DNA of 44,328 nucleotides from Lentisphaeria bacterium (GTDB lineage Bacteria; Verrucomicrobiota; Lentisphaeria; JABSQK01; JAWLHB01), in the NCBI GenBank assembly GCA_041690595.1, contig JAWLHB010000058.1, positions 1 through 44,328 of the forward strand, written 5' to 3'. Position numbers and translations under genes: made by a program. Below the pieces are notes generated by a model. That model had not been told where the DNA came from. It was given only the letters and a program-made list of their open reading frames with translations, and did no database searches. Every line of letters begins with the position of its first letter. Position 1 is the first letter of the stretch. Positions 353-36,590 of the stretch are shown piece after piece.

Positions 353-433
353 TTCGCCGCCCAATCTTCAGAATATTCAGCCTGAAAAGGCTTGCAAGGG
401 GGGCTGTCCTATAGTATATCTATGGTCATGATA

Positions 434-1573
434 ATGAACGCTATAGAAAATAGCTTCGCAACGACGGTCGCGCACTTGCGTGCGACCGTCGACGGCAACT
501 CCTGCGTCCCTCTCTATCATCAGATCGCCACGGAGCTGGAGACCTTGATTCAGGAGGCAGTGCTGCAGCCCGGGGATGCGCTGCCGAGTGACGCTGAACT
601 CAGTCGCGAGTTGGGCGTCAATCCTCCGACCGTCCGTCGCGCCATGGCCGGCCTCGTCGACAAGGGGCTGGTTGTCCGCAAGCGGCAGGCCGGCGCTTTC
701 GTTGCGCGACCCGACCATGTTCGCTCCAGAAACATCGGCTTCTTCTACATCCGCGAAGACCAGTGCGCCAAGCTGCAGGTGGCCGAAACCGTCCAGAAGG
801 AACTGGCCGACTCCGGCTACGATCTGAAGCTGATTGGCATTGACGCGACCTTCTATGAACGGGAGTCGTTGCCGGCGCAGATTGCCCGCATGGATCTGGT
901 CGGCGCCATTCTTGTCGCCCTTCCCGGCGAGGCCTGCCGCAAAGCCCTGCAGGAGCTGGATGCCGCCCACTTCCCCTATCTTCGCCTGGGCAACCGCATG
1001 TGGTCGGAATGCCTGCGCTCCCCACTCGTCTGCTCCGATGTGAATGGCGCCGCGTCGGCTGCCCTGCGCCTGCTCGCCGACCGGGGACATCAGGAGATCG
1101 GTGCCCTGATTTCACCCGATCACGATCAGGTTGCCGTCGCCTTTCGTGAAGCCTTCATCTCTGACGATGAAAAGCGCGAGGCGCGCCTCTTCCCGATTCG
1201 CTTCACGGGCCCCCATGCGCAGTGGCACACCTTCCGCGAAGGCCCGCTCCTTGTGCGTGGCTATCTCGAAACCCATCGCGAGGTGACCGCCCTCGTCGTC
1301 GAGCACGCCAGCTGCGCGGTCGAAGTCGTACGGCAATGCCGTGCCATGGGCCGCCGCATCCCCGACGATCTCTCCCTGGTATGCCTCTTCGACCATCCCA
1401 TTCTCGAGGCTACCGATCCCACCATCTCCGCGTTTCATGTTCCGCCTTCCCGCGTCGGCCTGCGGGCCGCCCGGCGCCTGCTTCACCTGTTGCGCCATGA
1501 CGAAAGCCCCGACCCCGCCCTCGATGCCATTCAACATGACCTGATCGATCGCCAGTCGATCGCTCCACGTTAA
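434..1573 (+). CDS. GntR-family regulator with LacI-type periplasmic-binding-protein effector domain (AraR-like)
   Basis: GntR wHTH PLYHQIA...LPSDAELSRELGVNPPTVRRAMAGLVDKGLV. LacI-type C-terminal IPDDLSLVCLFD...PTISA. Start may be 422, 428 or 434. Confidence 0.9.
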   Translation: MNAIENSFATTVAHLRATVDGNSCVPLYHQIATELETLIQEAVLQPGDALPSDAELSRELGVNPPTVRRAMAGLVDKGLVVRKRQAGAFVARPDHVRSRNIGFFYIREDQCAKLQVAETVQKELADSGYDLKLIGIDATFYERESLPAQIARMDLVGAILVALPGEACRKALQELDAAHFPYLRLGNRMWSECLRSPLVCSDVNGAASAALRLLADRGHQEIGALISPDHDQVAVAFREAFISDDEKREARLFPIRFTGPHAQWHTFREGPLLVRGYLETHREVTALVVEHASCAVEVVRQCRAMGRRIPDDLSLVCLFDHPILEATDPTISAFHVPPSRVGLRAARRLLHLLRHDESPDPALDAIQHDLIDRQSIAPR

Positions 1574-1592
1574 CCTGCCGAGGTACACCCCC

Positions 1593-4508: not shown

Positions 4509-4511
4509 CCA

Positions 4512-6881
4512 ATGAGCAACCTGACCCTTCGCCGTTCCGATACCGCGCTCCACCTCCAGAATGACCTCTTCTTCCTGGAAATCGGTCCGGGTGGTCTGCC
4601 GTCCGCCCTTGGCTATTCCGGCACCGCCACCCCCGTCTGGCAGGCCGCCCAGCCATGCCTGAGCGCTCGCTTCGATGGGCGAACCATCCGCCCCGTCGTC
4701 GAGGGACCCCTCTCCGCCAGGATCGACCACGAGGACGACCATGTCGCCATCTCCATCGACAGCATCGCCTGGCAGGACGATGATGGCGCCACCATCCCCG
4801 GTTTCCGACTCGATATCCACTACCAGATCTTTGACGACGGCGCCGCCTTCGCCACCCCCTTCTTCTATACCCACAGCCTTGAAACCGGCGCCATCGACCA
4901 CTTCAGGCTCCAGCCATCCCTGCAACTGGCCGGTGACCAGCAGGCCGAATGGTCGCACTGGCGCCTGCCCAGCCGCACCGACGCCACCCTCATCCAGGCC
5001 CTCGGCGATTTCTACCGCGACCTGCCCGCCACCGGCACCACTCGCGAGGACGGCACCATCTGGCCCTTTGTCGCCGTCGACTTCGGCGCCGGCCTTCAGC
5101 GCGATCATCACCTCGAGTTCTTTGTCGAATCCTGGAACAGCCTCGGCATGCAGCCCAGCGAGACCGCCTCCGAGCTGACCTGGAAGGATGGACGTGCCGA
5201 CCTTACCTGGGATTTCCAGACCACCCCCTGTCGCCGCGATGGGCGGACCTTCCAGTGGCGCAATACCTGGGGATGGTGCATCCGCCGCTGGCCCGTCGAA
5301 CGGCGTCCGCCATGGCGCATCATCCACTACCTCGACAACTTCCAGCGCTATCCCACCGATTCCCAGATCGCCGACTGTGCCGCCGAGGGCGCCAACCTGC
5401 TGATCCTCCACGAGAGCTGGCGGCTCGACATGAAGCAAGGCGAGTTTGCCTGGGATCCCGATGAGCTGCGCCGCACCGTCGAAAGCGCCCATCGTCATGG
5501 CCTGCGCGTGGCGCTCTATGGGCGCGGCAACGAAGATGGCATGCGCTTTGATGATGGCCGCCACATCATGCGTTGGCTCAAGCCCGACTGGGACGGACTC
5601 TACCTCGACTATGCCAGCCCCGCTGCCTATGCCATGCAGGAAGAGAACTCCCCCGGCGGCCGCATCCCCTTTCGCCAGTGGGATCTCCTCATGCGCCGCG
5701 CCCGCCGAACCGTCGGCGACGGCGGGGTGATCATCGGCCACAGCGGCTCCTGGTTCTCCGCCCTCGGCTTCACCAGCATGGACGGCTACCTCGGCGGCGA
5801 ACAGGAGAAAGGGCGCCTCCTCGAAGACTCCCGCACCCACGCCTACTTCTGCGGCCTCTCCATCTGCTCCAGCTACCTCTGGACCGCTGCCTTCCCACCC
5901 TACCGCGGCCCGGGCAGCCTTCCCTTCCTCGCCACCGCCGCCCAGGCCCCCTTTGTCCATATTGGCAGCCAGTTTCCGAGCAGCTCCCTCGCGCATCCCG
6001 ACTTCCCCGCCGCAACCACCTTCGCCCGCCCCCTCTGGCGGCTCTGGGAGTTCCTCCCCGCCGATCGCTCCGTTCGCGTTCTCTCCTCCCTCGCCGGCAC
6101 CCCGTGGGCCAGCAATGCCCCCGATGGTATCGGCCTCTGTGCCATGTGTGCCGAAGGTGACGCGACCCTCCTCATCGCGGCCAACCATACGGATGCGCCC
6201 GTCGATCTCGACCTCACCCCCGACTGGGATGCCATCGGCGTCACCGCCGCCGCCCAACTGGTCCTGCTCCTGCCGGGAGAGGAAAGCACCGAAGCTTCAC
6301 CCGCGGACGCGTGTCGCGCTCGCCTCGAGCCGAACGGCATCGCCGGCTGGCTTCACCTCGCCGATGACGGCGAACGCCGCCACCGTGTCGACCATTTCCT
6401 CCGCCCATATCCCCCCGCCACCGAGGCGCGCGCTGCCCGCCGGGAACGGCTCGCGGCCCAGCGGCGCACCCGCTTCGAACCGGAGCCTTGGCGTCACGCC
6501 TGGCTGCGCGTCGGCATCCACAACTTCCCCAATACCTACGAGGACTCCATCTGGGAGGATCTCTTTGCCAACCGCATCGAACTCCATCGCCTCACCGATG
6601 GCGGCAGCGAGTGCCTGGGGCTCATCGGACCCACGGGCCTGGGCGACGATCAGCGCCTCATGCCCGGCATCTACAGCGCCTGGATCCCCCTCCACGATCT
6701 GCTCAGCCCCGGCGAGCACCGCCTCGCCCTCGTCACCAGGAGAGGAAACGATGAGTTCTACTCCTGGGTCGACGTCTTGATCTCCCGCGATCCCGTCGGC
6801 GAAACCGCTCGCACCCTCGTTTTCGACAACGACATCGATCCCGACTGGTCCACCCTCCCCTTCATCGTCCGCCTCGAATAG
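4512..6881 (+). CDS. Hypothetical protein, putative glycoside hydrolase-like (beta/alpha)8 barrel
   Basis: 789-aa ORF starting 3 nt after the upstream stop. Contains GANLLILHESW, HRHGLRVALYG and WDGLYLDY, which resemble GH36/clan-D barrel strands. No signal peptide. Confidence 0.6.
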   Translation: MSNLTLRRSDTALHLQNDLFFLEIGPGGLPSALGYSGTATPVWQAAQPCLSARFDGRTIRPVVEGPLSARIDHEDDHVAISIDSIAWQDDDGATIPGFRLDIHYQIFDDGAAFATPFFYTHSLETGAIDHFRLQPSLQLAGDQQAEWSHWRLPSRTDATLIQALGDFYRDLPATGTTREDGTIWPFVAVDFGAGLQRDHHLEFFVESWNSLGMQPSETASELTWKDGRADLTWDFQTTPCRRDGRTFQWRNTWGWCIRRWPVERRPPWRIIHYLDNFQRYPTDSQIADCAAEGANLLILHESWRLDMKQGEFAWDPDELRRTVESAHRHGLRVALYGRGNEDGMRFDDGRHIMRWLKPDWDGLYLDYASPAAYAMQEENSPGGRIPFRQWDLLMRRARRTVGDGGVIIGHSGSWFSALGFTSMDGYLGGEQEKGRLLEDSRTHAYFCGLSICSSYLWTAAFPPYRGPGSLPFLATAAQAPFVHIGSQFPSSSLAHPDFPAATTFARPLWRLWEFLPADRSVRVLSSLAGTPWASNAPDGIGLCAMCAEGDATLLIAANHTDAPVDLDLTPDWDAIGVTAAAQLVLLLPGEESTEASPADACRARLEPNGIAGWLHLADDGERRHRVDHFLRPYPPATEARAARRERLAAQRRTRFEPEPWRHAWLRVGIHNFPNTYEDSIWEDLFANRIELHRLTDGGSECLGLIGPTGLGDDQRLMPGIYSAWIPLHDLLSPGEHRLALVTRRGNDEFYSWVDVLISRDPVGETARTLVFDNDIDPDWSTLPFIVRLE

Positions 6882-12029: not shown

Positions 12030-12106
<77 letters not shown>

Positions 12107-23934: not shown

Positions 23935-24882
23935 TCAGCCCTGCAGGTATTTCCGGAAATAGTGGCGGAATTGATCGTAGGTCATCCGCAGACGGCGGGC
24001 GGCTTCCCGCTGGTTCTGGTCGCAGGCGTTGAAGGCCTCGATGATGAGATGGCGGCGGAAGGCCTCGACCTGCTCGTGAAAGCTGCCTTCCCCCGGTACG
24101 CCTGTTCCGCGAGCGGTACCGGCAATTTCCGGCGGCAGGGCGGAGGGCTCGATAGTCTCGGCACTCCCGAAGACATAGAGGCGCTCCACGACATTGCGCA
24201 GCTCACGGATGTTGCCCGGCCAGTAGTAGTCGAGCATGGCCTCCACCGTCTCCCGCGCGAAGCTCCTGGGCGTCAGGTTCGGCAGCTCTTCATGCAACTG
24301 CTTGACGAAGTGGACGATCAGGTGCGGGATGTCCGCCTTGCGCTGGCGCAGGGGCGGCACCGCCAGAACCGCGAAGCTGAGCCGGTCGTAGAGATCCGCC
24401 CGAAAGACGCCGGCCCGGATCAGCTCTTCCATGTCGGCATTGGTCGCCGACAGCATGCGTACGTTGACGCGGATTGTCTTCGTACCGCGCACCCGCTGGA
24501 ATTCCTGATACTCCACGACGCGCAGGATGCTCTCCTGGAAGGCCGTCGACATGTTGCCGATTTCGTCCATGAAAAGGGTACCGCCATGCGCCTGTTCCAG
24601 CTTGCCGATCCGCGCCTCGGTCGCTCCGGTGAAGGCCCCTTTCTCATGGCCGAACATTTCGGCGTTGAGCAGCTCGTCGGTGAATGCGGCGCAATTGATC
24701 GCCACAAAAGGCTGGTCATGCCGCATACTGAGTTCGTGAAGGTAGCGAGCGAGAAGCTCCTTGCCCGTGCCACGCTCCCCACGGATCAAGACCGGCCGCG
24801 GAATGGCAGCCAAACTTCCGGCCTGCTCCAGAAGGTCGCGCATCGACTGGCTGTGTGCTATTCCGGCGAAAGAGGGTTTCAT
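23935..24882 (-). CDS. pspF: Phage shock protein transcriptional activator PspF (receiver-less sigma54 bEBP)
   Basis: No N-terminal sensor domain. GERGTGKE, GAFTGA, RADLYDRLSF and WPGNIREL motifs. The C-terminal HTH NQREAARRLRMTYDQFR matches the PspF signature NQKRAAELLGLTYHQFR. Confidence 0.9.
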   Translation of the reverse strand: MKPSFAGIAHSQSMRDLLEQAGSLAAIPRPVLIRGERGTGKELLARYLHELSMRHDQPFVAINCAAFTDELLNAEMFGHEKGAFTGATEARIGKLEQAHGGTLFMDEIGNMSTAFQESILRVVEYQEFQRVRGTKTIRVNVRMLSATNADMEELIRAGVFRADLYDRLSFAVLAVPPLRQRKADIPHLIVHFVKQLHEELPNLTPRSFARETVEAMLDYYWPGNIRELRNVVERLYVFGSAETIEPSALPPEIAGTARGTGVPGEGSFHEQVEAFRRHLIIEAFNACDQNQREAARRLRMTYDQFRHYFRKYLQG

Positions 24883-24887
24883 GCGGC

Positions 24888-24916
24888 AACGTACGCGATG
24901 GCAGGACGGCTGTCAA
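24888..24916 (-). promoter_or_regulatory. sigma70 promoter of pspF (probably leaderless)
   Basis: The minus strand has TTGACA (24916-24911), a 17-bp spacer and TACGTT (24893-24888), 5 nt before the ATG. No SD sequence. Confidence 0.65.
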
Positions 24917-24921
24917 GTGAC

Positions 24922-24957
24922 TGGTGAATAACGCCATGAAGATGGTGTAAAACACCA
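24922..24957. promoter_or_regulatory. Two PspF-type upstream activator sequences
   Basis: TGGTGAATAACGCCA (24922-24936) and the perfect palindrome TGGTG-TAAAA-CACCA (24943-24957), 21 bp apart. Confidence 0.75.
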
Positions 24958-24999
24958 CCAGCCGCGTCTCCTGCCGGCTCGACACGCTCGCTGCTGCCT

Positions 25000-25015
25000 T
25001 GGCATGTTCCATGCT
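25000..25015 (+). promoter_or_regulatory. sigma54 (-24/-12) promoter of the yqiJ-like/flotillin/ATPase operon
   Basis: TGGCATGTTCCATGCT, an exact GG-N10-GC, downstream of the UAS pair and divergent from pspF. Confidence 0.8.
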
Positions 25016-25213
25016 TTGACGGATATATGACAAGAAGCAGTCATGATTTGCGTTTGCATTGAAAGGGCCAAAGGCTATGTTCGGATTCAAGCTCGAAACA
25101 GTGAGCGGTGTCGCCAAGGATCATAGCGGATACCGGGTGATCAGGGTGACACTGCTACGGGTAATCGCCAACTTGCAACGGCCGGCGACCACAATGCGGA
25201 GTCTGCAGCACCG

Positions 25214-25861
25214 ATGAAAGAATTTCTGACCATCACCTTTTCGCCAGCGATGCTGCCCTTCACGATTCTGCTCATTCTGGTCATCCTCTACTGGATCTTC
25301 ACGATGATCGGCGCGGTCGGCGTCGACTTTCTGAGCTTTGACTTCATGGATGAAACCGCTGACGGCGCCGCCGAGGGGATGATGGAGGGGGGCGGGGGTA
25401 TTCTGCAGGGCCTGCTCTCCTTCCTGAATGTCGGGGCGGTTCCGGTGACGGTGGTCGGCAGCCTGACGATTCTCCAGATGTGGTTTCTCGCCTTCCTCTA
25501 CTTTGCCTACGTGGTACCTGCCCTGAGCGGCTTCGCGCCCTTTCTCCTCCTGGCTGCCGTAGGCATTGGCATCGCCCTCGTCTGCGGCCTGCTCCTCACG
25601 GGGCTGACCAGCCGGCCTTTCCGCAACATGTTCAAGGTCGAGACGCAGCATGGCCAGCATCATCTGATCGGCCAGGTCTGCATCATCAAGACGAGCTGCG
25701 TCACCGAGTCATTCGGCCAGGCGGAGGTGACCACCCCCGGCGCACCGCTCCTCCTTTCGGTTTTCTGTGACGAAGAGAACAACCTTGCCAAGGGCGACGA
25801 AGCGGTGATCGTCGGCTACAACGAAGCCCGTGGCATCTATCATGTCAAACCAATGATGTAA
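25214..25861 (+). CDS. YqiJ/DUF1449-like (NfeD-type) membrane protein with C-terminal OB fold
   Basis: Three to four TM segments, LSFLNVGAVP motif, C-terminal LIGQVCII...FGQAEV...LAKGDEAVIVGY. Lies directly upstream of a flotillin. Confidence 0.85.
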   Translation: MKEFLTITFSPAMLPFTILLILVILYWIFTMIGAVGVDFLSFDFMDETADGAAEGMMEGGGGILQGLLSFLNVGAVPVTVVGSLTILQMWFLAFLYFAYVVPALSGFAPFLLLAAVGIGIALVCGLLLTGLTSRPFRNMFKVETQHGQHHLIGQVCIIKTSCVTESFGQAEVTTPGAPLLLSVFCDEENNLAKGDEAVIVGYNEARGIYHVKPMM

Positions 25862-25909
25862 TGCCGGCACGAGTCGGTCGAACGGATTGTAATACGCGAG
25901 GGTAAGCAA

Positions 25910-27982
25910 ATGAAGGCAGTGTTCGCTGTGATTGTGGTAATTGGCGTCGTCGTCCTCATCCTGCTGGGTGTTCTGGCGCTCATCTGGTTGTTCTACCGCA
26001 AGGTGGCCATGGGTCATGCGCTGATCGTCAATCGCTATGGCAAGAAGATCGATGTCTTTTTCACGGGTGGCACGGTCTGGCCAGTCGTGAACAAAGCAGA
26101 AATCATGGACATATCCGTCAAAGCCATGGAGATCGACCGCCGCGGCAAGGATGGCCTCATCTGTTCGGACAACATCCGAGCAGATATCACCGTCACCTTC
26201 TTCGTTCGCGTGAGTCCGTCGCAGGAAGACGTCCTCAAGGTCGCCCAGAGCGTGGGTTGCGAGCGGGCCTCGACCAAGGAAACGCTCCATGAACTCTTCG
26301 GCGCCAAGTTCTCGGAAGCTCTCAAGACGGTCGGTAAGCAGATGGATTTCATCGACCTGTATACCGAGCGCGACAGCTTCAAGGAGCGCATCATCGGGGT
26401 TATCGGCGAGAACTTGAACGGCTACAGCCTCGAAGATGTGGCCATCGACTACCTCGAGCAGACCCCCCTCGGCAGTCTCGATGCCGACAACATCCTCGAC
26501 GCGCAGGGCATCCGCAAGATCGTTGAGCTCACCGCCAAGGAGGCGATCTCCACCAACGAGTTTCAGCGAAACAAAGAGCGCACCATCAAGCAGCAGGATG
26601 TCGAGACCCGCGAGAAGGTGCTCGAACTGGAACGCCAGGAGGCGGACGCTACCGCCCGCCAGCGTCGTGAAGTCGAGACCCTCCAGGCGCGTGAAACCGC
26701 CGAGACGGAGAAGGTCCGCGCCGAGCAGGCCCTGATCTCGGAGAAGGCGCGCATCGCGACGGACGAACAGATCGCCGTTGCCAATCAGAACAAAGAGCGC
26801 CAGGTCATCATCGCCCGCAAGAACAAGGAACGCACCGACGCCATCGAAAGCGAGCGTGTCACCCGCGATCGCGACCTCGAAGCGACCGAACGCGAACGGC
26901 TCGTCGCCCTCAAGCAGATCGAGAAGGAGAAGGATGTCGAAGTCGAGAAGAAGAACATCCAGGAAGTGATCCGCGAGCGGGTGAGCGTCGAGCGCACGGT
27001 GGCCGAGGAAGAAGAGAAGATCAAGGATACGCGCGAGATAGCCGGGGCGGAACGTATCCGCAAGACGGAAGTCATTGCGGCCGAGCGGGAAGCGCAGAAA
27101 GGCAAGATCGAGATCACGGTGCAGGCCGAGGCGAAAGAAGAGGCGGCCAGGCACCTCTTCGAAGAGATGTCGATCACGGCCGAAGCCGAGCGCGTCGCCG
27201 CCGAAAAGCAGTCGGAAGCCAAGAAGGTGCTGGCCGCGGGTATTGTCGAAGAACGCGCCGCGGAAGGGCTTGCCGAGGTGAAGGTGCGGGAGGCAAACGC
27301 GCATGCCACCGAGGTGACCGGCAAGGCCGAAGCGTCCGCCTCGACAGAGCGTCACCGCGCCGATGCCTTCGGGATTGAAGCGTCGGGCGATGCCGAAGCC
27401 AAATCGATGCGCGCCAAGTACAGCGCCGAGGCGGAAGGCGTCTCTGCCAAGGCCGAAGCCATGAAGAAGCTCGACGAAGTCGGGCGCGAGCATGAAGAGT
27501 TCAAGCTTCGTCTGGCTAAGGCGGAACGTGTCGAGATCGCCCAGATCGATGTGCAGCGTAAGATTGCCGAGTACCAGTCGCAAGTCATGGGTGAAGCCAT
27601 GAAGACGGCCAAGATCGAGCTGATCGGGGGTGGCCAGGAGTTCCTCGACACCTTCTTCAAGTCGATCGCTCTCGGCAAGGCCGTGGATGGCTTTGTCAAT
27701 CACAGCGAAGTCATTCAGGGGCTCAGCGACGGCGGGGATGGCAAAGCGCTGGTCGAGCAGCTCAAGGGGCTCATCGGCAAGGAAGGACTGAGCGCGGAGA
27801 GTATCAAGGATCTCTCCATCGCGGCCCTGCTGACCCGTCTGGCTGCCGGCGGCAAAGACAAGAGTACGCGCGACAAGGCCCTTCAGCTCAAGCGCCAGAT
27901 TGAAGACCAGGGGCTCGGCACCGTCGGCCTCGATAACGTCATCGGCGAATGGCTTGCCAGCGGCCAGGGCTACAAGGGCTGA
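25910..27982 (+). CDS. Flotillin / SPFH (band 7) domain protein, YqiK-like
   Basis: N-terminal TM. SPFH core GLICSDNIRADITVTFFVRV...LNGYSLEDVAIDYLEQT...NILDAQGIRKI. Long AE/EA-rich coiled coil. Confidence 0.93.
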   Translation: MKAVFAVIVVIGVVVLILLGVLALIWLFYRKVAMGHALIVNRYGKKIDVFFTGGTVWPVVNKAEIMDISVKAMEIDRRGKDGLICSDNIRADITVTFFVRVSPSQEDVLKVAQSVGCERASTKETLHELFGAKFSEALKTVGKQMDFIDLYTERDSFKERIIGVIGENLNGYSLEDVAIDYLEQTPLGSLDADNILDAQGIRKIVELTAKEAISTNEFQRNKERTIKQQDVETREKVLELERQEADATARQRREVETLQARETAETEKVRAEQALISEKARIATDEQIAVANQNKERQVIIARKNKERTDAIESERVTRDRDLEATERERLVALKQIEKEKDVEVEKKNIQEVIRERVSVERTVAEEEEKIKDTREIAGAERIRKTEVIAAEREAQKGKIEITVQAEAKEEAARHLFEEMSITAEAERVAAEKQSEAKKVLAAGIVEERAAEGLAEVKVREANAHATEVTGKAEASASTERHRADAFGIEASGDAEAKSMRAKYSAEAEGVSAKAEAMKKLDEVGREHEEFKLRLAKAERVEIAQIDVQRKIAEYQSQVMGEAMKTAKIELIGGGQEFLDTFFKSIALGKAVDGFVNHSEVIQGLSDGGDGKALVEQLKGLIGKEGLSAESIKDLSIAALLTRLAAGGKDKSTRDKALQLKRQIEDQGLGTVGLDNVIGEWLASGQGYKG

Positions 27983-28000
27983 CCTGACGAATCTCGGTTC

Positions 28001-28032
28001 GCGGCCGCCTGGGCAACCGCTCGGGCGGCCGC
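28001..28032 (+). other. GC-rich intercistronic hairpin without a U-tract
   Basis: GCGGCCGCCTGGG-CAACCG-CTCGGGCGGCCGC between the flotillin and ATPase genes. Confidence 0.7.
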
Positions 28033-28063
28033 ATCCCATCCACCTTCAATCCTTGCATGAGCC

Positions 28064-31000
28064 ATGGCTGACGATACAACCAACACCGAGACAACCGAAG
28101 AAGCCGGCCCGCGAGACACCGCTCTGGAAGGTGGAGCCTACGATGTGCTGCGCAAGCGGCTGCAAGGGCTGGAGCGCGAACTCCTGGGACGGGTCGACAA
28201 GCTGAACGCGGAGCGCAAGGAGGTCTTCGGCGGGACCGAGAGCGCCATTATCGGTACGGCCCGGATCAAGACGGAGCACAACTGCCTGGCGCGGGACGTC
28301 GTCAGCATCGGCACGCACCTGATCGTCGGCTTTGAAGTCGTCATCGGCATGAAGAGTGAGGTGAAAGTCACCGACATGTTCGGTGTCTATGAAGTGGCGG
28401 GTGAGGAGTTGAAGCAGGTGGAGCCGGCGCTGCTGGCAGATGCCACCTTTCAGCGCGACTTCAGCGAGATCTTCCGCTACTACCAGAAGGCCCGCTTCCT
28501 GCAGTTCATCAAGCAGTTGGACAAGCTCCTCTTCATCTTCCAGGTTGGCGCGACCGAGAAGGACGTCAAGGTCGTGCGCTGGCGCATCGGCAACGACCAG
28601 ACGCTGCACTACATCGACGATCGCGGCGATCAGGATTACAAGCTGCCGGCGCAGCAGGATTTCGGCTGGACCAAGACAACGCGCGATGACCAGGTCTTCG
28701 GCGAGCATCCCCACGTGTCGATCGAAGATCGCGTCTTCGTGGAGTGCGTCGGCGGCGATCTGACCATCAAGATCGAAAACAATACCGCCAGCGGCGAAGG
28801 CATTTACGCGGAGCCGGTCGAGAATGCGGATCAGACGCTCGACGACGCCCACATCTGGTATGCCAGGATCGGCAGCCTGATCCTCCTTCGCGTGCAGCCG
28901 TACATGGAAGATGCGAACCGCTACTTCATCTTCAATCCAAAGACCGAGACGGCGGTGCGTCAGGATTCGATCGAGCAGGCGTGCGTGCAGTTGCCGGAAG
29001 GTCACGGCATCATCTTCCCGAAGGGCTGCTATCTGGAGAGCGGCGATTACCGGGAGTTTCAGGAACGGGTGGAAGGCATGGGCTACCACAGCCTCGTGCG
29101 TTCGCCCAATGGCGAAGATTTCCTCTACATCTTCTATCAGCGCGAGAGTGGCGCCTATGTCCTGCTCCAGTACAACCTGATCGCCAAGCGCCTGGAGAAC
29201 CCCATCTTCTGCATCGGCTATTCTCTGTACGACGATGGACGCATGCTCCTCTGCACCTCGCCCGATCGCGACCCCAAGCGCATTCACACCGTCCAGATCT
29301 GGCAGACTCCTTTTTACAGCGACACCCATCAGGTTGTCCAGCAGAGCGACTCCTACCTCGACAAGATCGGCAATCGCGATCTGGTGAGGGCCATCGCCGA
29401 CTGCACCAGCATCAGCCGCCTCGTCAATCGTGATGTCGTCAACATCCTCGTCTATCAGGAGTTGGTCGACGAAGCGAACGGCTTGCTGGATGGTTATCAC
29501 TGGCTGGGCCACGACTCCGTCTTCAACCTGCGCGAGATCGTCGTCCAGATCAAGACCGCCGCGCTCGCCGCGGTGGACGAATTCGACAAGGTCGAGCGCA
29601 TCCGCCGCACCACCCGCGAGCAGATCGACGCCAATGCCAAGGCCGCCGAAGCGCTGATCAAGGAAGCCCGCTTCGGCAGCTTCCGTACAGTCGACGATTT
29701 CGTGACGATGCTCAATCAGCTCCGCTCCCGCCGCGGGCAGGTCATCTCCCTGCGCGAGCTGCGCTTTGCCGACCAGGAACGCATCGCCCGGCTGGAGGAA
29801 CAGCTCGAAAAGGCTACGCACGAACTTTCCCTGGCCTGCATCGACTTCCTCTTGCGGCCCAGCTCCTTCGACAGCTACTTCGAACGCGTCGCGGATGTCG
29901 AAAAGAAGACCGAGGCCGCCGGCAAGGTCGCCGATATCCTGCCGCTCGAAGCGACCCTCGAAGAGCTGAGTCAGCGCCTCGACCTGCTGACCGACGTCGT
30001 CAACAACCTCCAGATTGATGATACCACCAAGACGACGCGCATCGTCGACGCGATCACCGATGTCTTCGCGGCCGTCAACCGCGGCAAGGCCATGGCGCGC
30101 AATCGCCGGCAGGATCTGGGGCGGCGGGAGTCATCGGCCGAATTCGCCGCACAGTTCAAGCTCCTCTCCCAATCGATCAACAACTACATCGGCCTCTGCG
30201 ACACCCCCGCGAAATGTGACGACTATCTGACCAAGCTGATGGTCCAGGTCGAGGAACTCGAGGGGCGCTTCGTCGATTTCGAAGAGTTCGTCGAGCAGCT
30301 CTCGGAGAAGCGGGAGGAAGCCTACGCGGCTTTCGTCAATCGCAAGCAGCTCCTCGAGGAAGAGCGCAAGCGCCGTGTCAACAGCCTGCTTTCCAGCGCC
30401 GAACGCATCCTGAAGGGAATTCGCAACCGCGCCGAGAGCTTCAAGACGGTCGACGACGTCAACGCCTACTATGCTGCCGACCTGATGGTGGCCAAGCTTC
30501 GTGACATCATCGACAAGCTGCAGGAGTATGGCGACAGCGTCAAGGCCGATGACCTGCTGGGCCAGCTCAAGTCGAGCAAGGACGCCACCATCCGCAAGCT
30601 GCGCGACAAGATCGACCTCTTCGACGAGGGCGAGAACCTCATCAAATTCGGCGAGTACCGCTTCACCGTCAATACCCAGCCCCTCGAACTGACGACCATC
30701 TATCGCGACGATGCGACCTTCTTCCACCTGACCGGCACCGACTTCTACGAGCGCATCACGGATCCCGATTTCCTGCTGACCCGCGACCTGTGGGAGCAAA
30801 GCCTGGTCAGCGAGAACAGAGAGGTCTACCGCGCGGAATACCTGGCCTACATCATTCTCAAGGCGGCGGTGAGCAAGGAAGCGGGGCTGAACCTGGAAGA
30901 ACTGATCGCGGCCGCCAATGACGAGGAGGCGAAGCCACTGGCGGAGTTGGTCCACCGTTTCGCCTCCGACCGGTACAACGAGGGCTACGACAAGGGGATA

Positions 31001-33346
31001 CACGATCACGACGCCACCCTCATCCTTCGTGCCCTCGTCAATGTCTACAATGAATGCGAGCTGTTGCGCTACGACTCCACCTCGCGCGCCCATGCCATCA
31101 TCTTCTGGTGCTACTACGCCGACGATGCGCACAAGCAGCGTCTGCGCAACAAGCTCCGCAGCTATGGCCAGATGGGGGACACCTTTGACTATCGCGAGCC
31201 GGACCCGCGTTACATCGGCGAGATCCATACCGCCATGCATCACTTCTTTGGCGGTGTCCTCGGCGAAGTCGACCCAACGACGCTGCGCATTGCCGCCGAG
31301 TACCTCTTCTATGAGCTGCAGGATCAGGCCGAGCTGCTCTTCACCGTCAACGCCCTGGCCCATCAGCTCTACAAGCGTTTTGACGCCTATCTGCACAAGC
31401 GCCGGGTCAAGGACGCCTTTCTGGCGGACGTGGCGCACCAGCAGGACGACCTTGCCAACCTGCTCAGCCTGACCCACCACTGGGTCGCCACCTATGTCCG
31501 CACGCAGGAAGGCGAAGAGCATGTGCCGCTGGTCTGGGAGGTGGTGGCGCTGATTGCGGCGGGCGACGTGATCGAGAAGGAAGAGATCGCGATCTCCACC
31601 TACCGGGTGGTCAAAGGGTGCCTGGGGCAACATCCGCTGATCAAGGAGAAGCAGCTGCCCATTCATCTGGACCGCTGGCTGCTCAAGATGAATCAGTTCG
31701 CCAACGAACGAGTCCCTCGATTTCAGCAGTACCTGCAGCTGCGGACGGAGCTTACGGCGCGCCGCCGACACGAGATGCGCCTGCACGAATTCCAGTCGAA
31801 GGTGCTCGGCTCCTTTGTGCGCAACAAGCTGATCAACGACCTCTACCTCGGCCTGGTGGGCGCCAACTTTGCCAAGCAGATGGGGGCGGCCGGCGAAGGA
31901 AAACGGACGGACCTGATGGGCATGCTGCTGCTCATTTCGCCACCGGGCTATGGCAAGACCACGCTGATGGAATACATCGCCAATCGCCTCGGCCTGACCT
32001 TCATGAAGATCAATGGCCCCGCCATCGGCCACGGCGTGACGTCCCTCGATCCGGTGGAAGCGCCCAATGCCACCGCACGCGAAGAGCTGGGCAAGCTGAA
32101 CCTGGCGCTCGAGATGGGCAACAACATCATGCTCTATGTCGATGACATCCAGCACTGCAACCCCGAGTTTCTGCAGAAGTTCATCTCGTTGTGCGACGCG
32201 CAACGGCGCATCGAAGGCGTCTACCGGGGGCAGCCGAAGAGCTACGATCTGCGGGGCAAGAAGGTGGCCGTGGTCATGGCCGGGAATCCATACACGGAGT
32301 CGGGAGACAAGTTCAAGATCCCGGACATGCTCGCCAATCGCGCCGATACCTACAATCTGGGCGATATCTCCGCCTCCGCCCGCGACCTCTTCGAGCTTTC
32401 CTTCATCGAGAACGCGATGACGTCGAACCAGGTGCTGACTACCATCGCCTCCCGCAGCCACGAAGATCTCTATCGCTTCATGCAGATCCTCGCGACCAAT
32501 TCGCGCGAAGGCATTCAGTTCGACCATGACTATTCCGCCGCCGAGGTCACGGAGATCCTCGGTACGCTGAAGAAGCTGCGCCGGGTGCAGCAGATCCTTC
32601 TGCGCGTGAACGAGCAGTACATTTATTCGGCCGCCCAGCAGGACGATTATCGCAAGGAGCCCCCCTTCAAGCTCCAGGGTTCGTACCGCAATATGAACAG
32701 GTTGGCGGAAAAGGTCTTCCCGGTGATGACCGACCAGGAAGTGGATCAGTTGATCATCGACCACTATTACAACGAATCACAGACGCTGACGACCGGCGCG
32801 GAGGCCAACCTCCTCAAGTTCAAAGAGCTGATGGATGTCATGAGCGAGGACGAACGTCGGCGCTGGGAGGACATCAAGAGTGAGTTCAACCGCCGGCAGA
32901 TGCTCTCCGGGATGGACGATTCAGACCAGATGGGGCAGGTGCTGGGGCAGCTCTCCGCCTTCAATGCCGGACTCGGCAACATCCGTACCTCCATCGATCG
33001 CAGCCTCGAAAGCGGTCTGCGGCAGCTTGCCGGGCGGCTGGTCGAGGGACAGCAGCTCGATCTTTCCCCTTTGGTGGACGCGGTGACCCGTATTGGCGAG
33101 CGCCAGCCACAGCTCAACCTGACGCCGCTGATCGAAGCGATGCGTCAGCCTCCCGCCCTGCAGGCAAACTTCCCCAAGGAGTACGCCAAGGCATGGGAGC
33201 GCCAGATCACCGCCGTTGAATGCCTCGTCCCCATTCTCGAGTCGATCAAGTTGCAGAACGACACCTTCCTGCAACTGAAGGTCGTCATGCAGGAAATTCT
33301 GGAAGGCCGCGTCCACGTACGGCGAACCGCCCCCCCGGACCAGTAG
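28064..33346 (+). CDS. Giant coiled-coil AAA+ ATPase (DUF3686, commonly auto-annotated as 'DNA repair ATPase')
   Basis: 1760 aa. N-terminal GGAYDVLRKRL and HPHVSIEDRVFVECVGGDLTIKIENNT. Central coiled coil. Walker A SPPGYGKT, Walker B MLYVDD, AGNPY and MLANRAD. Confidence 0.88.
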   Translation: MADDTTNTETTEEAGPRDTALEGGAYDVLRKRLQGLERELLGRVDKLNAERKEVFGGTESAIIGTARIKTEHNCLARDVVSIGTHLIVGFEVVIGMKSEVKVTDMFGVYEVAGEELKQVEPALLADATFQRDFSEIFRYYQKARFLQFIKQLDKLLFIFQVGATEKDVKVVRWRIGNDQTLHYIDDRGDQDYKLPAQQDFGWTKTTRDDQVFGEHPHVSIEDRVFVECVGGDLTIKIENNTASGEGIYAEPVENADQTLDDAHIWYARIGSLILLRVQPYMEDANRYFIFNPKTETAVRQDSIEQACVQLPEGHGIIFPKGCYLESGDYREFQERVEGMGYHSLVRSPNGEDFLYIFYQRESGAYVLLQYNLIAKRLENPIFCIGYSLYDDGRMLLCTSPDRDPKRIHTVQIWQTPFYSDTHQVVQQSDSYLDKIGNRDLVRAIADCTSISRLVNRDVVNILVYQELVDEANGLLDGYHWLGHDSVFNLREIVVQIKTAALAAVDEFDKVERIRRTTREQIDANAKAAEALIKEARFGSFRTVDDFVTMLNQLRSRRGQVISLRELRFADQERIARLEEQLEKATHELSLACIDFLLRPSSFDSYFERVADVEKKTEAAGKVADILPLEATLEELSQRLDLLTDVVNNLQIDDTTKTTRIVDAITDVFAAVNRGKAMARNRRQDLGRRESSAEFAAQFKLLSQSINNYIGLCDTPAKCDDYLTKLMVQVEELEGRFVDFEEFVEQLSEKREEAYAAFVNRKQLLEEERKRRVNSLLSSAERILKGIRNRAESFKTVDDVNAYYAADLMVAKLRDIIDKLQEYGDSVKADDLLGQLKSSKDATIRKLRDKIDLFDEGENLIKFGEYRFTVNTQPLELTTIYRDDATFFHLTGTDFYERITDPDFLLTRDLWEQSLVSENREVYRAEYLAYIILKAAVSKEAGLNLEELIAAANDEEAKPLAELVHRFASDRYNEGYDKGIHDHDATLILRALVNVYNECELLRYDSTSRAHAIIFWCYYADDAHKQRLRNKLRSYGQMGDTFDYREPDPRYIGEIHTAMHHFFGGVLGEVDPTTLRIAAEYLFYELQDQAELLFTVNALAHQLYKRFDAYLHKRRVKDAFLADVAHQQDDLANLLSLTHHWVATYVRTQEGEEHVPLVWEVVALIAAGDVIEKEEIAISTYRVVKGCLGQHPLIKEKQLPIHLDRWLLKMNQFANERVPRFQQYLQLRTELTARRRHEMRLHEFQSKVLGSFVRNKLINDLYLGLVGANFAKQMGAAGEGKRTDLMGMLLLISPPGYGKTTLMEYIANRLGLTFMKINGPAIGHGVTSLDPVEAPNATAREELGKLNLALEMGNNIMLYVDDIQHCNPEFLQKFISLCDAQRRIEGVYRGQPKSYDLRGKKVAVVMAGNPYTESGDKFKIPDMLANRADTYNLGDISASARDLFELSFIENAMTSNQVLTTIASRSHEDLYRFMQILATNSREGIQFDHDYSAAEVTEILGTLKKLRRVQQILLRVNEQYIYSAAQQDDYRKEPPFKLQGSYRNMNRLAEKVFPVMTDQEVDQLIIDHYYNESQTLTTGAEANLLKFKELMDVMSEDERRRWEDIKSEFNRRQMLSGMDDSDQMGQVLGQLSAFNAGLGNIRTSIDRSLESGLRQLAGRLVEGQQLDLSPLVDAVTRIGERQPQLNLTPLIEAMRQPPALQANFPKEYAKAWERQITAVECLVPILESIKLQNDTFLQLKVVMQEILEGRVHVRRTAPPDQ

Positions 33347-33440
33347 CCTCCCTGCCTGCCTGCGTTTTACCGGTGGATGGTAACGGATGACGGAAAAAGG
33401 TCATCTGCACCCTTTATTCCGCTATTCAGGAACAACGTGC

Positions 33441-33469
33441 TTGACTGATGTAGTCATGGTGTGTAATGT
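33441..33469 (+). promoter_or_regulatory. Putative sigma70 promoter of the rhomboid gene
   Basis: TTGACT, 17-bp spacer, TAATGT. Confidence 0.5.
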
Positions 33470-33557
33470 TCGGGATAATGGGCATTCGCGTGAACCTTGA
33501 TGAACTTTCATGCAGGTTCATGCCTGTAAATGTACACTCAACCACGGGAGGTGAATC

Positions 33558-34310
33558 ATGCTGGTAGTCGCACCTTATCGCACGGATGTTTTGTTCCCAC
33601 GTTTTCCGCTGATGAACATCATCTTCATGGTCATCACCATCGCGATGTTCTTTGGGCTTCTCTTCGAGGTGATAGAAGATGTCGAGAAGCTGATACTCTT
33701 CGATTGGGGGCTCAGCGGGATGATTGGGCACATGTTCGTGCACTTCAGTTTCTGGCACCTCTTCGGCAACATGGCCTTTCTGTGGGTGTTCGGGAATGCG
33801 ATATGCACGAAGATGAGCGGCCTTGGTTATGGGCTCCTGTACATCGGTGGTGGACTGGTGGCCGCTGCCACCCACCTGATCTTCAGCGGTGAACCGGCCA
33901 TAGGCGCCAGTGGTGCCATCAACTGCATTGTCGGCTTCTATCTGGTCGTCTATCCGCTGAATGCGATCAGCTTCTTCTATCTCATCCTCTGGTTCCTGCC
34001 GCCGATCGGCAAGTGCGGGCAGTTTGCGATACCCGGCTTCCTGGTGATCATCCTCTTCTTCGTCTTCGATATCGTGGGCGTGGCCAGGGGCGGAGGCGGC
34101 GTTGCTTACTGGGCGCACATCGGCGGCTTCCTCTTTGGCGTCGTCTCCGGCCTCATCGTGGTGGCTGCCGGCAAGATCACCCTCACCCAGCACGATCATC
34201 GCACCCTCTGCGACATTCTCACCGGCAAGAACGAATCGACCGCCAAGCGCAAGAAGCTGGATCGCATGCGGCAGAGCAAGCCGAAGGTCTACGTCATCGA
34301 CGGGGAATGA
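33558..34310 (+). CDS. Rhomboid family intramembrane serine protease
   Basis: HMFVHFSFWHLFGNM, catalytic GASGA and AHIGG motifs. GGAGGT RBS. Confidence 0.93.
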   Translation: MLVVAPYRTDVLFPRFPLMNIIFMVITIAMFFGLLFEVIEDVEKLILFDWGLSGMIGHMFVHFSFWHLFGNMAFLWVFGNAICTKMSGLGYGLLYIGGGLVAAATHLIFSGEPAIGASGAINCIVGFYLVVYPLNAISFFYLILWFLPPIGKCGQFAIPGFLVIILFFVFDIVGVARGGGGVAYWAHIGGFLFGVVSGLIVVAAGKITLTQHDHRTLCDILTGKNESTAKRKKLDRMRQSKPKVYVIDGE

Positions 34311-34334: not shown

Positions 34335-34368
34335 AAAAAAGCCCGCTGCCGGTGGTGCGGCAGCGGGC
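34335..34368 (-). terminator. Rho-independent terminator of the 34391-34910 minus-strand operon (possibly bidirectional)
   Basis: Perfect 11-bp stem GCCCGCTGCCG/CGGCAGCGGGC with A6 on the + strand. Confidence 0.85.
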
Positions 34369-34390: not shown

Positions 34391-34753
34391 TTATTCGGCT
34401 ACGGGCTCGGGCAGTACCTCGGCCTTGACCGGAACGATGACGGAGGCGACAACGGTCAGCCATTTGGCCTCTTCCACCACGGAAACAATGCCGGTGACCT
34501 TGGCGTCACGGCCTTCGGCGAGGGCAAGCGCCTTGCCCTTCTCGTCGAGCTTGACGTTGTAGGTGACGGCGGGGTCGCCCGCAACAACGAGCTTGACGGC
34601 GGTGACGATGCCTTCTTCGTTTTCAACGACGACGACTTTACCGGTGACGGCAATGGTCGCCGGCTTGATCTCGACCGCGGCGTCCTGTGCATGGATACTG
34701 GTGCAGAAGGTGGCGGCCATCAGGATAACAATCGACATGAGTAGTTTGCGCAT
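34391..34753 (-). CDS. Small secreted beta-rich (OB-fold-like) protein
   Basis: Signal peptide MRKLLMSIVILMAATFCTSIHA|QD. VTGKV...GRDAKVTGIV pattern. The ORF-track extension to 35014 is out of context. Confidence 0.75.
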   Translation of the reverse strand: MRKLLMSIVILMAATFCTSIHAQDAAVEIKPATIAVTGKVVVVENEEGIVTAVKLVVAGDPAVTYNVKLDEKGKALALAEGRDAKVTGIVSVVEEAKWLTVVASVIVPVKAEVLPEPVAE

Positions 34754-34784
34754 AGTTGAGCCCTTTATTCTCGTTTTGTAATGA

Positions 34785-34910
34785 TCAGCGTTTGGGACGG
34801 GGAGCGTCTTTCTTGTCGGTGGGCTTGCTCGTGTCGCAGGGCTTGCCCGGCTTGCAGCAGCCGCCTTGTTTCGGGGGTTGCTGTTTGGCTGGTTCCTTCT
34901 TGTCTGCCAT
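34785..34910 (-). CDS. Unannotated 41-aa Lys/Pro-rich small protein with a GGCC-x5-C cluster
   Basis: AAGGAG RBS 7 nt before the ATG. Reads MADKKEPAKQQPPKQGGCCKPGKPCDTSKPTDKKDAPRPKR*. First ORF after a sigma54 promoter. Confidence 0.7.
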   Translation of the reverse strand: MADKKEPAKQQPPKQGGCCKPGKPCDTSKPTDKKDAPRPKR

Positions 34911-34975
34911 GGGAATGCTCCTTTTGTTGTTGCATCTCTAAGCCAATCAGGGTTGGCGTTGGCGGTATAGGATAT

Positions 34976-34991
34976 AGCATTCGTGATGCCA
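34976..34991 (-). promoter_or_regulatory. sigma54 (-24/-12) promoter
   Basis: The minus strand reads TGGCATCACGAATGCT (GG-N10-GC), divergent from a sigma54 activator gene. Confidence 0.75.
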
Positions 34992-35020
34992 GATGAAGAA
35001 GAAGCCGCGTTCATGCACCG

Positions 35021-35033
35021 TAAGTGGCTGATA
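35021..35033 (-). promoter_or_regulatory. IHF-like binding site
   Basis: The minus strand TATCAGCCACTTA fits WATCAR-N4-TTR and sits between the sigma54 site and the putative UAS. Confidence 0.5.
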
Positions 35034-35084
35034 ATCAGGCAGATGCGGCTAGATCAGGCAATTTTATTGGAGACGGTGATAAAC

Positions 35085-35151
35085 ACAGAATGGCATCTTG
35101 ACTTCCGACAAAACGGAATCCATAGTTCTTATTTACAGAAACAGGAATTCT
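35085..35151. promoter_or_regulatory. Candidate enhancer (UAS) repeats overlapping the activator's own sigma70 promoter
   Basis: AC(A/G)GAA-N7-TT(C/G) at 35085, 35113 and 35135. TTGACT-17-CATAGT at 35098-35126. Confidence 0.5.
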
Positions 35152-35159
35152 ACCTACCG

Positions 35160-36590
35160 ATGCTAGTCCGAATTGTCATGTTGCTGGACGATGAGGTGTT
35201 GGAGAAGCGGCTGCGGCGCTTGCTCAAACGAGACGATGTCTTGCTGACTTCCCTGGCCGGCAGCGAATTGGAGGTTGCCCGTCTGGAACGGGAATCGCCG
35301 GATCTGCTGATCATCACCCGTCATCTGCTCAAGGAGCCCCTGCTGCCGACCATGATCGCATTGCGCCGACTTCCGGAAGAGCCGGAGGTGCTGGTGATGC
35401 GGGAGTTGGAGAACGCGGCGGAGCGGGCTCACCTGCTGGCGGCAGGCGTCTGCGCGGTGGCCTGCACCGAAGTGGCCGACGCGGCGCTGGCGGAGTTGCT
35501 GGCGCGACAGATCGAGCGTCGCGTGCAGGCCATGCTGAGCCTCCTGGATGCCGCCCATGGTGCGCGACAGGTGCGGCTGATGGACTTTGTCTCGGCGAGT
35601 TCGGCGATGCATGCCTTTGTGCAGACGGTCTACCAGGTGACGGATGCGGATACCACCTTGCTAATTCTCGGGGAGACCGGGGTCGGCAAGGAGCACCTGG
35701 CACGCGGCATTCATGCGGAAAGCCGCCGTGCGAGCGGGCCGTTCATCGCCGTGAACTGCGGCGCGCTGCCGGAGCACCTGCTCGAGAGCGAACTCTTCGG
35801 CCATGAGGAGGGCGCCTTCACCGGGGCGAGTCGAGCGGTTCGCGGTCAGTTTGAGCTGGCCCATCGCGGCACGCTCTTTCTGGACGAGATCGGCGACATG
35901 CCGGTCCACCTGCAGGTCAAGCTGCTGCATGTTCTGGAGCGCCGGCAGATTCGCCGGGTTGGCGGTGAACGCGTGATCGACATCGACGTGCGGATACTGG
36001 CGGCGACCAATCGCAATCTGGGGGTCGAAATCGCGGCGAATCGCTTTCGGCAGGACCTCTTCTATCGCTTGAGCGCCGTAGCGCTGACGATCCCGCCCTT
36101 GCGGGAACGACGCGAGGATGTGCCGGAGCTGATCGCCAACTATCTGCGCCATTTCCGCGTCGCCATGGGGCGGGATGTGCGGGAGGTCGCCCCGTCGGCG
36201 GTGGCGGCGTTGCAGCGTTACGACTGGCCGGGGAATGTGCGCGAGTTGATCAATGTGGTCGAGAGGGCGGTCCTGCTCAGCAGCGGACCTGTTGTCGGTC
36301 TTGCCGACTTGCCGCCGGCCATCGCGGGAACGGTTGCCGGAAGCCCCTTCACGCCGACCGCGATGGCGGCGAGCGACACGGTGGCGGTACCGGTGCTGAG
36401 CGATCAGCCCCTGTCCACGGCGCGCACCACCGCGGTAGCCGTCTTCGAACATGCCTACGTAAGCCAGGTGCTGCGGAAGACTGGCGGCAGAGTCGGCGAG
36501 GCTGCCAGACTGGCGGGAATCACGCCGCGCGCCCTCTACGATCGCATGCGTCATCTCGGGCTGCGAAAGGAAGATTTTCGCGATCGCTGA
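35160..36590 (+). CDS. sigma54-dependent Fis-family activator (NtrC-like) with degenerate receiver domain
   Basis: [38 protein letters not shown] and WPGNVREL motifs plus a Fis HTH. The receiver-like N-terminus has PDLLIIT where the phospho-acceptor Asp is expected. Confidence 0.92.

Follow-up and report, generated by a model that had tools for sequence, protein, structure and literature searches.

Several described systems are close to the locus analyzed here, which lies at 23935-34310 of a 44,328-nucleotide stretch of DNA (in the following, the window) from a Lentisphaeria bacterium (GenBank assembly GCA_041690595.1, contig JAWLHB010000058.1), and in which a PspF-like activator gene stands divergent from a cassette of NfeD/YqiJ-like, SPFH/flotillin-like and DUF3686 AAA+ genes. 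One is the Psp (phage-shock protein) system of Escherichia coli, where the same activator, PspF, also serves a second, unlinked promoter, that of pspG (PMC9239133). Another is the cassette itself. PspA, band-7/flotillin, AAA+ and YqiJ/YuaF proteins have been linked by gene neighborhood, and PspA-free forms of the cassette were proposed to work with PspA encoded elsewhere (PMC11237479); the same source states a beta-propeller fold for DUF3686 proteins. In Bacillus subtilis, the SPFH protein YdjI, encoded in pspA-ydjGHI (samGHI), links PspA to the membrane (PMC8581546; cited in PMC10936438). According to a 2025 review, a Vps4-like ATPase for PspA is apparently absent in bacteria (PMC7619361).

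The window corresponds to contig C58 of a genome of 8.1 Mb in 99 contigs (97% complete, 62% GC), referred to as G000; other G- and L-numbers denote the genomes and loci of relatives. Our analysis suggests that the locus is probably one half of a lineage-specific PspF regulon, consisting of PspA and the SPFH cassette, that was split by rearrangement, because the pspA genes of the same genome sit behind the same enhancer sites and because relatives show a synteny series of fused and split arrangements.

Common enhancer sites at the cassette and at pspA

The locus has the following features, in window coordinates:

23935-24882, minus strand: gene for a pspF-like sigma-54 activator of 315 amino acids (aa), with a Sigma54_activat domain and a putative C-terminal helix-turn-helix (HTH)
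24883-25213: intergenic region between the activator gene and the gene for the 215-aa protein
24922-24936, no strand assigned: enhancer site 1 (upstream activating sequence, UAS), TGGTGAATAACGCCA, one mismatch to the palindrome (motif scan)
24943-24957, no strand assigned: enhancer site 2 (UAS), TGGTGTAAAACACCA, palindrome arms perfect (motif scan)
25000-25015, plus strand: sigma-54 promoter-like element TGGCATGTTCCATGCT, GG-N10-GC, directed at the cassette (motif scan)
25016-25213, plus strand: leader of ~190 nt from promoter to first start codon, 25214 being the most upstream start in frame
25214-25861, plus strand: gene for an NfeD/YqiJ/YuaF-like membrane protein of 215 aa, with transmembrane helices and a C-terminal beta-barrel (fold match)
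25910-27982, plus strand: gene for an SPFH/flotillin-like protein of 690 aa, with an N-terminal transmembrane helix, an SPFH domain and very long helices (fold match)
28064-33346, plus strand: gene for a DUF3686/DUF7902/AAA+ protein of 1760 aa (PF12458)

The promoter element TGGCATGTTCCATGCT contains TGGCA and TGC cores and lies 43-78 bp downstream of the enhancer sites. The initial annotation, made from the DNA letters alone, had described a divergent activator gene, two UAS palindromes and a sigma-54 promoter at this locus, and all of these are in place, with one of the two palindromes imperfect. Taken by themselves, the motif counts for the window do not exceed chance expectation: the GG-N10-GC pattern has three matches, with 0.98 expected (a count reached in 10 of 100 shuffles), and the UAS pattern with at most one mismatch also has three, with 1.25 expected (reached in 13 of 100). 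What makes the elements significant is their co-location and their recurrence at pspA. The leader matched no Rfam family, and its fold z-score of -1.7 was not significant; by eye, a possible 29-codon open reading frame (ORF) starts at 25077.

The annotation had reported no pspA, pspB or pspC in the window, correctly, as all PF04012 (PspA family) matches of G000 are on other contigs. Its description of the system as PspA-less is true of the window only, however, since contig C32 carries tandem pspA genes behind two perfect enhancer sites and a promoter:

C32:84381: perfect TGGTG-N5-CACCA site, TGGTGAATTACACCA
C32:84413: perfect TGGTG-N5-CACCA site, TGGTGCCTTTCACCA, 32 bp from the first
C32:84507: GG-N10-GC promoter, TGGCGCGTAATGGGCT, ~60 nt before the ATG
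C32:84581-85336: first pspA gene, PF04012 98.2 bits (cut-off 33.9)
C32:85340-85954: second pspA gene, PF04012 106.4 bits (same cut-off)

A third PF04012 match, on C36, was weak (27 bits) and below the cut-off. What follows the tandem pair runs convergently to it, including a minus-strand Lnb_N/DUF7840 gene, so that the pspA unit comprises two genes only; plus-strand ORFs called downstream of the pair were rejected as spurious in view of this convergent gene. When PspB and PspC were sought with PF04024 and PF06667, no match was obtained anywhere in G000. Two full-length rpoN genes are present, at C5:202912-203385 and C14:25882-26358, with open frames of 500 and 474 aa.

Across G000 there are 24 perfect TGGTG-N5-CACCA sites and 605 sites with at most one mismatch. 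Among the latter, only two pairs are spaced 10-60 bp apart, and these are the pair in the window and the pair upstream of pspA. An earlier genome-wide scan, for a site with at most one mismatch and GG-N10-GC within 250 bp, returned 215 candidates and was replaced by this paired-site criterion; in a genome of 62% GC, such a scan is too noisy to name further regulon members. Two of the 24 perfect sites fall in a direct repeat of ~260 bp in what appears to be coding sequence (C44:53850-54400) and are probably chance matches in a repeated protein domain. A tRNA-Arg(CCT) gene (C32:84294-84369; L006 8295-8370) directly precedes the enhancer pair of pspA, and a Schlafen-type helicase gene lies several kb downstream of the pspA genes; the two may mark the rearrangement that parted pspA from pspF.

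The activator matched Sigma54_activat (PF00158, 4.8e-62) over residues 9-171 and has an AAA lid domain as well. It has no N-terminal regulatory domain, its AAA+ domain starting at residue 9 of 315, and the expected motifs are present: GAFTGA at 82-87, the Walker A motif GERGTGKE and the Walker B residues DE106-107. PspF models were its top NCBIfam matches, and it aligns with NF008622 along 11-311 (model positions 12-322 of 329). The C-terminus is conserved among orthologues; Pfam HTH_8 was not reported there at E <= 0.01. Its best match in the PDB was E. coli PspF at 240 bits, barely above ZraR at 237 bits.

The first two cassette proteins were recognized by fold. For the 215-aa protein, no Pfam match was obtained, even at E <= 10. 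In its model (predicted local distance difference test, pLDDT, 88), helices lead into a C-terminal barrel of five strands at 155-213, and the top fold matches were YbbJ from the QmcA-YbbJ complex (8z5g_AA), YuaF (2k14, TMt 0.67), 3cp0 (0.81) and 3wwv (0.73). Family alignments were built from homologues adjoining DUF3686 genes (A4, n=44; A3, n=52), and the profile of the smaller protein had YuaF 2k14 as its top PDB sequence match (E 0.033). Pfam Band_7 was likewise absent from the 690-aa protein even at E <= 10, and the NCBIfam FloT match was weak (1.3e-4, 21 bits with a cut-off of 700). Against PDB sequences, both single-sequence and profile searches gave a weak match to QmcA alone, the family profile meeting its helical region at 4.7e-4. 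Residues 1-250 were modeled with a pLDDT of 84-97 per 10-residue block, and fold comparison gave prohibitin (8rrh), flotillin (9bq2/9l3g), erlin, HflK/C and QmcA at E 1e-9 to 1e-7, the range being 1e-9 to 1e-4 with stomatin included. Since the Pfam models miss both proteins and fold comparison matches them, the labels NfeD/YqiJ-like and SPFH/flotillin-like are supported by the models at the level of fold, not of sequence.

The 1760-aa protein matched PF12458 (DUF3686) with 603.9 bits (cut-off 25, E 1.9e-181) and also PF25472, and has a C-terminal AAA/AAA_5 P-loop domain at 1288-1411, in which the Walker A motif GYGKTT and D1360-D1361 are invariant among nine sequences. In a profile search of the PDB it matched P-loop proteins alone (RuvB, p97 and NVL) and was otherwise without a solved relative; an Atlas look-up returned DUF3686 clusters alone, without structure. 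The three cassette genes are separated by gaps of 48 and 81 bp. The identities first proposed for them (YqiJ/NfeD, a 690-aa flotillin and a 1760-aa AAA+ ATPase) stand, in the case of NfeD and SPFH at fold level alone.

Gene order in relatives and genes beyond the cassette

DUF3686 was found in 12 of 40 relatives. A search of 200 other genomes of the class for activator orthologues (E <= 1e-95) identified six, with 59-64% identity, and in five of these relatives (L024-L026, L129 and L130) pspA is directly beside the orthologous activator gene. The fused state is represented by L024-L026, three genomes of one genus (g18), where pspF is divergent from pspA-...-yqiJ-flot-DUF3686 as one unit. In L024, pspA and yqiJ are separated by an inserted gene of the PD-(D/E)XK nuclease family (4193-4636, plus strand; PF13366, 3.7e-37). 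G040 and G031 have pspF divergent from pspA, with one perfect and one one-mismatch TGGTG-N5-CACCA site in between. The yqiJ-flot-DUF3686 cassette of G040 is located on a separate contig, where a perfect site precedes yqiJ by ~140 bp; of the eight perfect sites in this genome, two are thus the pspF-pspA site and the cassette site. In G002, pspF stands alone; elsewhere in the genome a perfect site is followed ~80 bp later by a canonical promoter, TGGCACGTCATTTGCT, behind which lie pspA-like, yqiJ and flot ORFs, and DUF3686 is found at yet another place. The pspA-like and SPFH genes of G002 (L131, C15:15000-23000; 391-4544, minus strand) are fragmented into a number of ORFs, one in-frame TGA being reported, and are either pseudogenes or errors in the assembly of a metagenome-derived genome. 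The order seen in the window, with pspF beside the cassette and pspA elsewhere, is the only case among the seven genomes.

The activator and PspA also occur together. Both were found in G000, G002, G040, G031 and the three g18 genomes, and neither was found in G012 or G003. A mismatch is presented by G009, in which the PspA match exceeds the cut-off (58.9 bits) and DUF3686 lies at a contig end, with no activator orthologue found. G012 (L023) and G003 (L027/L034) have Flot-DUF3686, with YqiJ detected only in G012. In L029-L031 (one genus, g15) and in L028 (G002), DUF3686 has no adjacent SPFH or YqiJ gene; its neighbors include a flagellin-like gene in L029 and an HlyD-like gene and a receiver-Ser/Thr kinase gene in L028.

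A wider survey of DUF3686 started from the best 80 of at least 566 loci, from which 5 without an N-terminal DUF3686 ORF and 15 with less than 4 kb upstream were dropped, leaving 60. An SPFH gene was upstream of DUF3686 in 53 of these, a YqiJ-like gene in 48 and both in 47, so that the cassette order, as judged by the 53 loci with Flot, is conserved across many phyla. PspA was present anywhere in 12 loci and directly upstream on the same strand in 11. These 11 loci, together with the three sister genomes and PMC11237479, bear out the annotation's statement that the three-gene cassette is found beside pspA in other bacteria. A sigma-54 activator gene was near DUF3686 in only one of the 60 loci, downstream and on the opposite strand. 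In the loci sampled, a PspF link adjacent to the cassette thus seems restricted to this Lentisphaeria lineage.

Beyond the cassette, the locus and the adjoining sequence contain:

33558-34310, plus strand: gene for a rhomboid-family intramembrane protease (PF01694, 86.5 bits, 2.6e-24)
34341-34368, no strand assigned: GC-rich hairpin of 11 pairs between the rhomboid gene and a convergent 207-aa ORF, with a T-run on the minus strand
34976-34991, minus strand: second sigma-54-like element, TGGCATCACGAATGCT, pointing at the 207-aa ORF (34391-35014, minus strand)

The rhomboid gene starts 211 bp after the ATPase gene and is preceded by a weak sigma-70-like site at 33451-33479. The annotation was right that a rhomboid protease follows the ATPase, but conservation of the cassette does not extend to this gene, as no rhomboid was seen near DUF3686 in the 60 surveyed loci or in the 12 loci of relatives; its membership in the operon is uncertain. 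Divergent from TGGCATCACGAATGCT is a gene for a 535-aa sigma-54 activator, or bacterial enhancer-binding protein (bEBP; 34983-36590, plus strand), the N-terminal 200 residues of which match no assigned domain. Together with the 207-aa ORF, for which no family match was found, it looks like a separate activator-target pair, and since a divergent sigma-54-like site accompanies this bEBP, the cassette promoter can be explained without it. The annotated start of the 207-aa ORF would overlap the promoter TGGCATCACGAATGCT, so the true start is probably further in. A family search of the window proteins showed that the genes flanking the locus are housekeeping genes (DHFR, DsbD and CoaBC). The sole Rfam match in the window was a tRNA gene at 12033-12106 on the minus strand.

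Proposed regulon and rival explanations

Starting from the observed genes, folds, common enhancer sites with their promoters, and synteny series, we propose the following scheme. A PspF-type enhancer-binding protein without a sensory domain would bind the TGGTG-N5-CACCA sites and, with sigma-54 RNA polymerase, switch on at least two promoters. The promoter beside pspF would drive the nfeD/yqiJ-like, SPFH/flotillin-like and DUF3686 AAA+ genes, with possible read-on into the rhomboid gene, and the promoter on C32 would drive the two tandem pspA genes. As a result of rearrangement, pspF would stand next to the cassette in G000 and next to pspA in other genomes. PspA may feed back on PspF, as in E. 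coli, and by analogy with B. subtilis YdjI, a membrane-anchored SPFH/NfeD assembly may recruit or organize PspA at the damaged membrane, where the DUF3686 AAA+ protein could remodel or disassemble PspA or SPFH polymers. In this scheme, we infer PspF binding from the sharing of sites, and physical cooperation between the products from their presumed co-regulation. The split regulon, with pspA elsewhere in the genome, is the case that the initial annotation had named as refuting its own reading, and, as far as sequence can test, it is the case indicated here.

A more far-reaching form of this scheme appears rather doubtful, though worth stating. In it, SPFH/NfeD/DUF3686 would be an integral arm of the Psp system: membrane-anchored SPFH-NfeD would replace PspB/PspC, sense damage and recruit PspA, DUF3686 would be the bacterial counterpart of Vps4 that remodels PspA or SPFH polymers, and PspF, given the absence of W56 (see below), might be held in check through a different interaction than in E. 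coli, perhaps one with a cassette protein.

Several observations weigh against a PspF regulon of this kind. The activator scored under both PspF equivalog cut-offs (337 versus 443.55 bits for TIGR02974 and 281.3 versus 529 bits for NF008622). The annotation had called it a clear PspF orthologue; PspF models are indeed its best NCBIfam matches, but with these scores "clear" is an overstatement. W56, the PspA-contact residue of E. coli PspF, aligns with H55 of the activator and with A, V, A, D and A in five aligned orthologues, and is replaced even where pspA adjoins pspF; because it is not conserved, the E. coli mode of inhibition of PspF by PspA is not supported by the sequence. The g18 genomes carry a different inverted repeat, GAGGTTTTTCA...TGAAAAACCTC, with the element TGGCAC-N5-TCGTT. 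No canonical GG-N10-GC was found in the AT-rich regions between site and pspA in G040 and G031, and the same is true of the region upstream of the cassette in G040, a genome with TGGCAAACAATTTCCA alone. In the window, a leader of ~190 nt intervenes between promoter and first gene. G012 (91% complete) and G003 (93% complete) carry the cassette, and neither PF04012 nor an activator orthologue was found in them, so that PspA is not needed by the cassette in all genomes. Finally, two site pairs in the genome are about the number expected from uniform placement (~2.3). A complex prediction for activator residues 1-245 (A2) with PspA2 (A5), with a score of 0.02 and a mark of 0.32, is evidence neither way.

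The number of site pairs bears on the rival explanation that survives best, namely that the sites are bound by another factor or are coincidental, and that the activator controls the cassette only, with pspA under independent control. Besides a pair count near expectation, it is favored by the many sigma-54 activators encoded (relatives show 5-22 matches at E <= 1e-40) and by the fact that binding of the activator to the sites is a prediction. However, the evidence is where the two pairs fall, not how many there are: both lie exactly at the two psp-related promoters of G000, and two perfect sites within one 214-bp region, as upstream of pspA, are a ~2e-7 event by arithmetic from the genome-wide site count. 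Furthermore, G040, G031 and G002 have sites of the same type, either between pspF and pspA or upstream of pspA or of the cassette. We thus regard this explanation as improbable.

We give considerably less credence to a truly PspA-less system, in which the flotillin/NfeD/AAA+ cassette would replace PspA as the sole effector under PspF control. The window does lack pspA, pspB and pspC, and G012 and G003 suggest that the cassette can exist without PspA, but G000 has two pspA genes behind the same kind of enhancer pair and a GG-N10-GC promoter, and pspA directly adjoins the orthologous activator gene in five of the six relatives. Least probable of all is that the cassette is an anti-phage defense or other conflict system placed under a stress regulator, as the annotation had raised: PspA was first discovered through phage secretin stress and a Schlafen-type helicase gene lies past pspA on C32, but PADLOC gave no match for the NfeD-like and SPFH proteins and only P-loop-level ones for the ATPase (IetA, 3e-4 over 29 residues), the flanks are housekeeping genes, and a gene order conserved across many phyla is unlike that of typical defense islands.

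Comparison with known systems

In the available open literature, we found no description of PspF or sigma-54 control of the cassette, although the supplementary tables and web application of PMC11237479 may list such contexts, and no mention of the name DUF3686. The significance of the locus is that it offers a second kind of evidence for the link between PspA and the cassette, namely the same enhancer sites before a physically parted pspA and cassette, together with the fused-to-split synteny series. It is also a compact test bed, made up of a single activator with two promoters and five or six genes, in which one could ask whether an SPFH scaffold works with PspA and whether a dedicated AAA+ protein remodels a bacterial ESCRT-III-like polymer. 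For cassettes that appear PspA-free, it follows that the whole genome has to be checked before they are labeled PspA-independent.

As in E. coli pspF-pspABCDE, a sigma-54 activator without a regulatory domain is divergent from enhancer sites and a sigma-54 promoter, and PspA genes would belong to the regulon, as in the E. coli Psp regulon. As with pspG, one activator would serve a second, unlinked promoter, here that of pspA on C32. Unlike in E. coli, the operon beside pspF is NfeD/SPFH/DUF3686 rather than pspA, PspB and PspC were not found in G000, and the activator differs from E. coli PspF in lacking W56 and in falling below the equivalog cut-offs.

Adjacent genes for NfeD-like and SPFH proteins are also found in the pairs QmcA-YbbJ (PDB 8z5g) and YqiK-YqiJ of E. 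coli and FloT-YuaF of B. subtilis, and the models of the cassette proteins match YbbJ, YuaF and QmcA. In contrast to these pairs, both proteins are too divergent for the Pfam Band_7 and NfeD models, the SPFH protein has 690 aa with very long helices, and the gene for a 1760-aa AAA+ protein follows. The coupling of an SPFH protein to PspA resembles that of YdjI and PspA in B. subtilis, although here it is suggested by the presumed co-regulation; judging from the text available on it, pspA-ydjGHI differs in its SPFH architecture and has neither an AAA+ partner nor sigma-54/PspF control. [quoted passage not shown] DUF3686 shows no detectable relation to Vps4 past the P-loop, and a Vps4-type role for it is purely conjectural.

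The cassette agrees with that described in PMC11237479 in having the same three genes in the same order, as does our survey (47 of 60 loci, with PspA upstream in 11), and differs from it, as far as the available text goes, in that a divergent PspF-like gene and common enhancer sites provide a regulatory link here. What is known from that work is the neighborhood link between the cassette and PspA; what is new is the common PspF/sigma-54 enhancer wiring.

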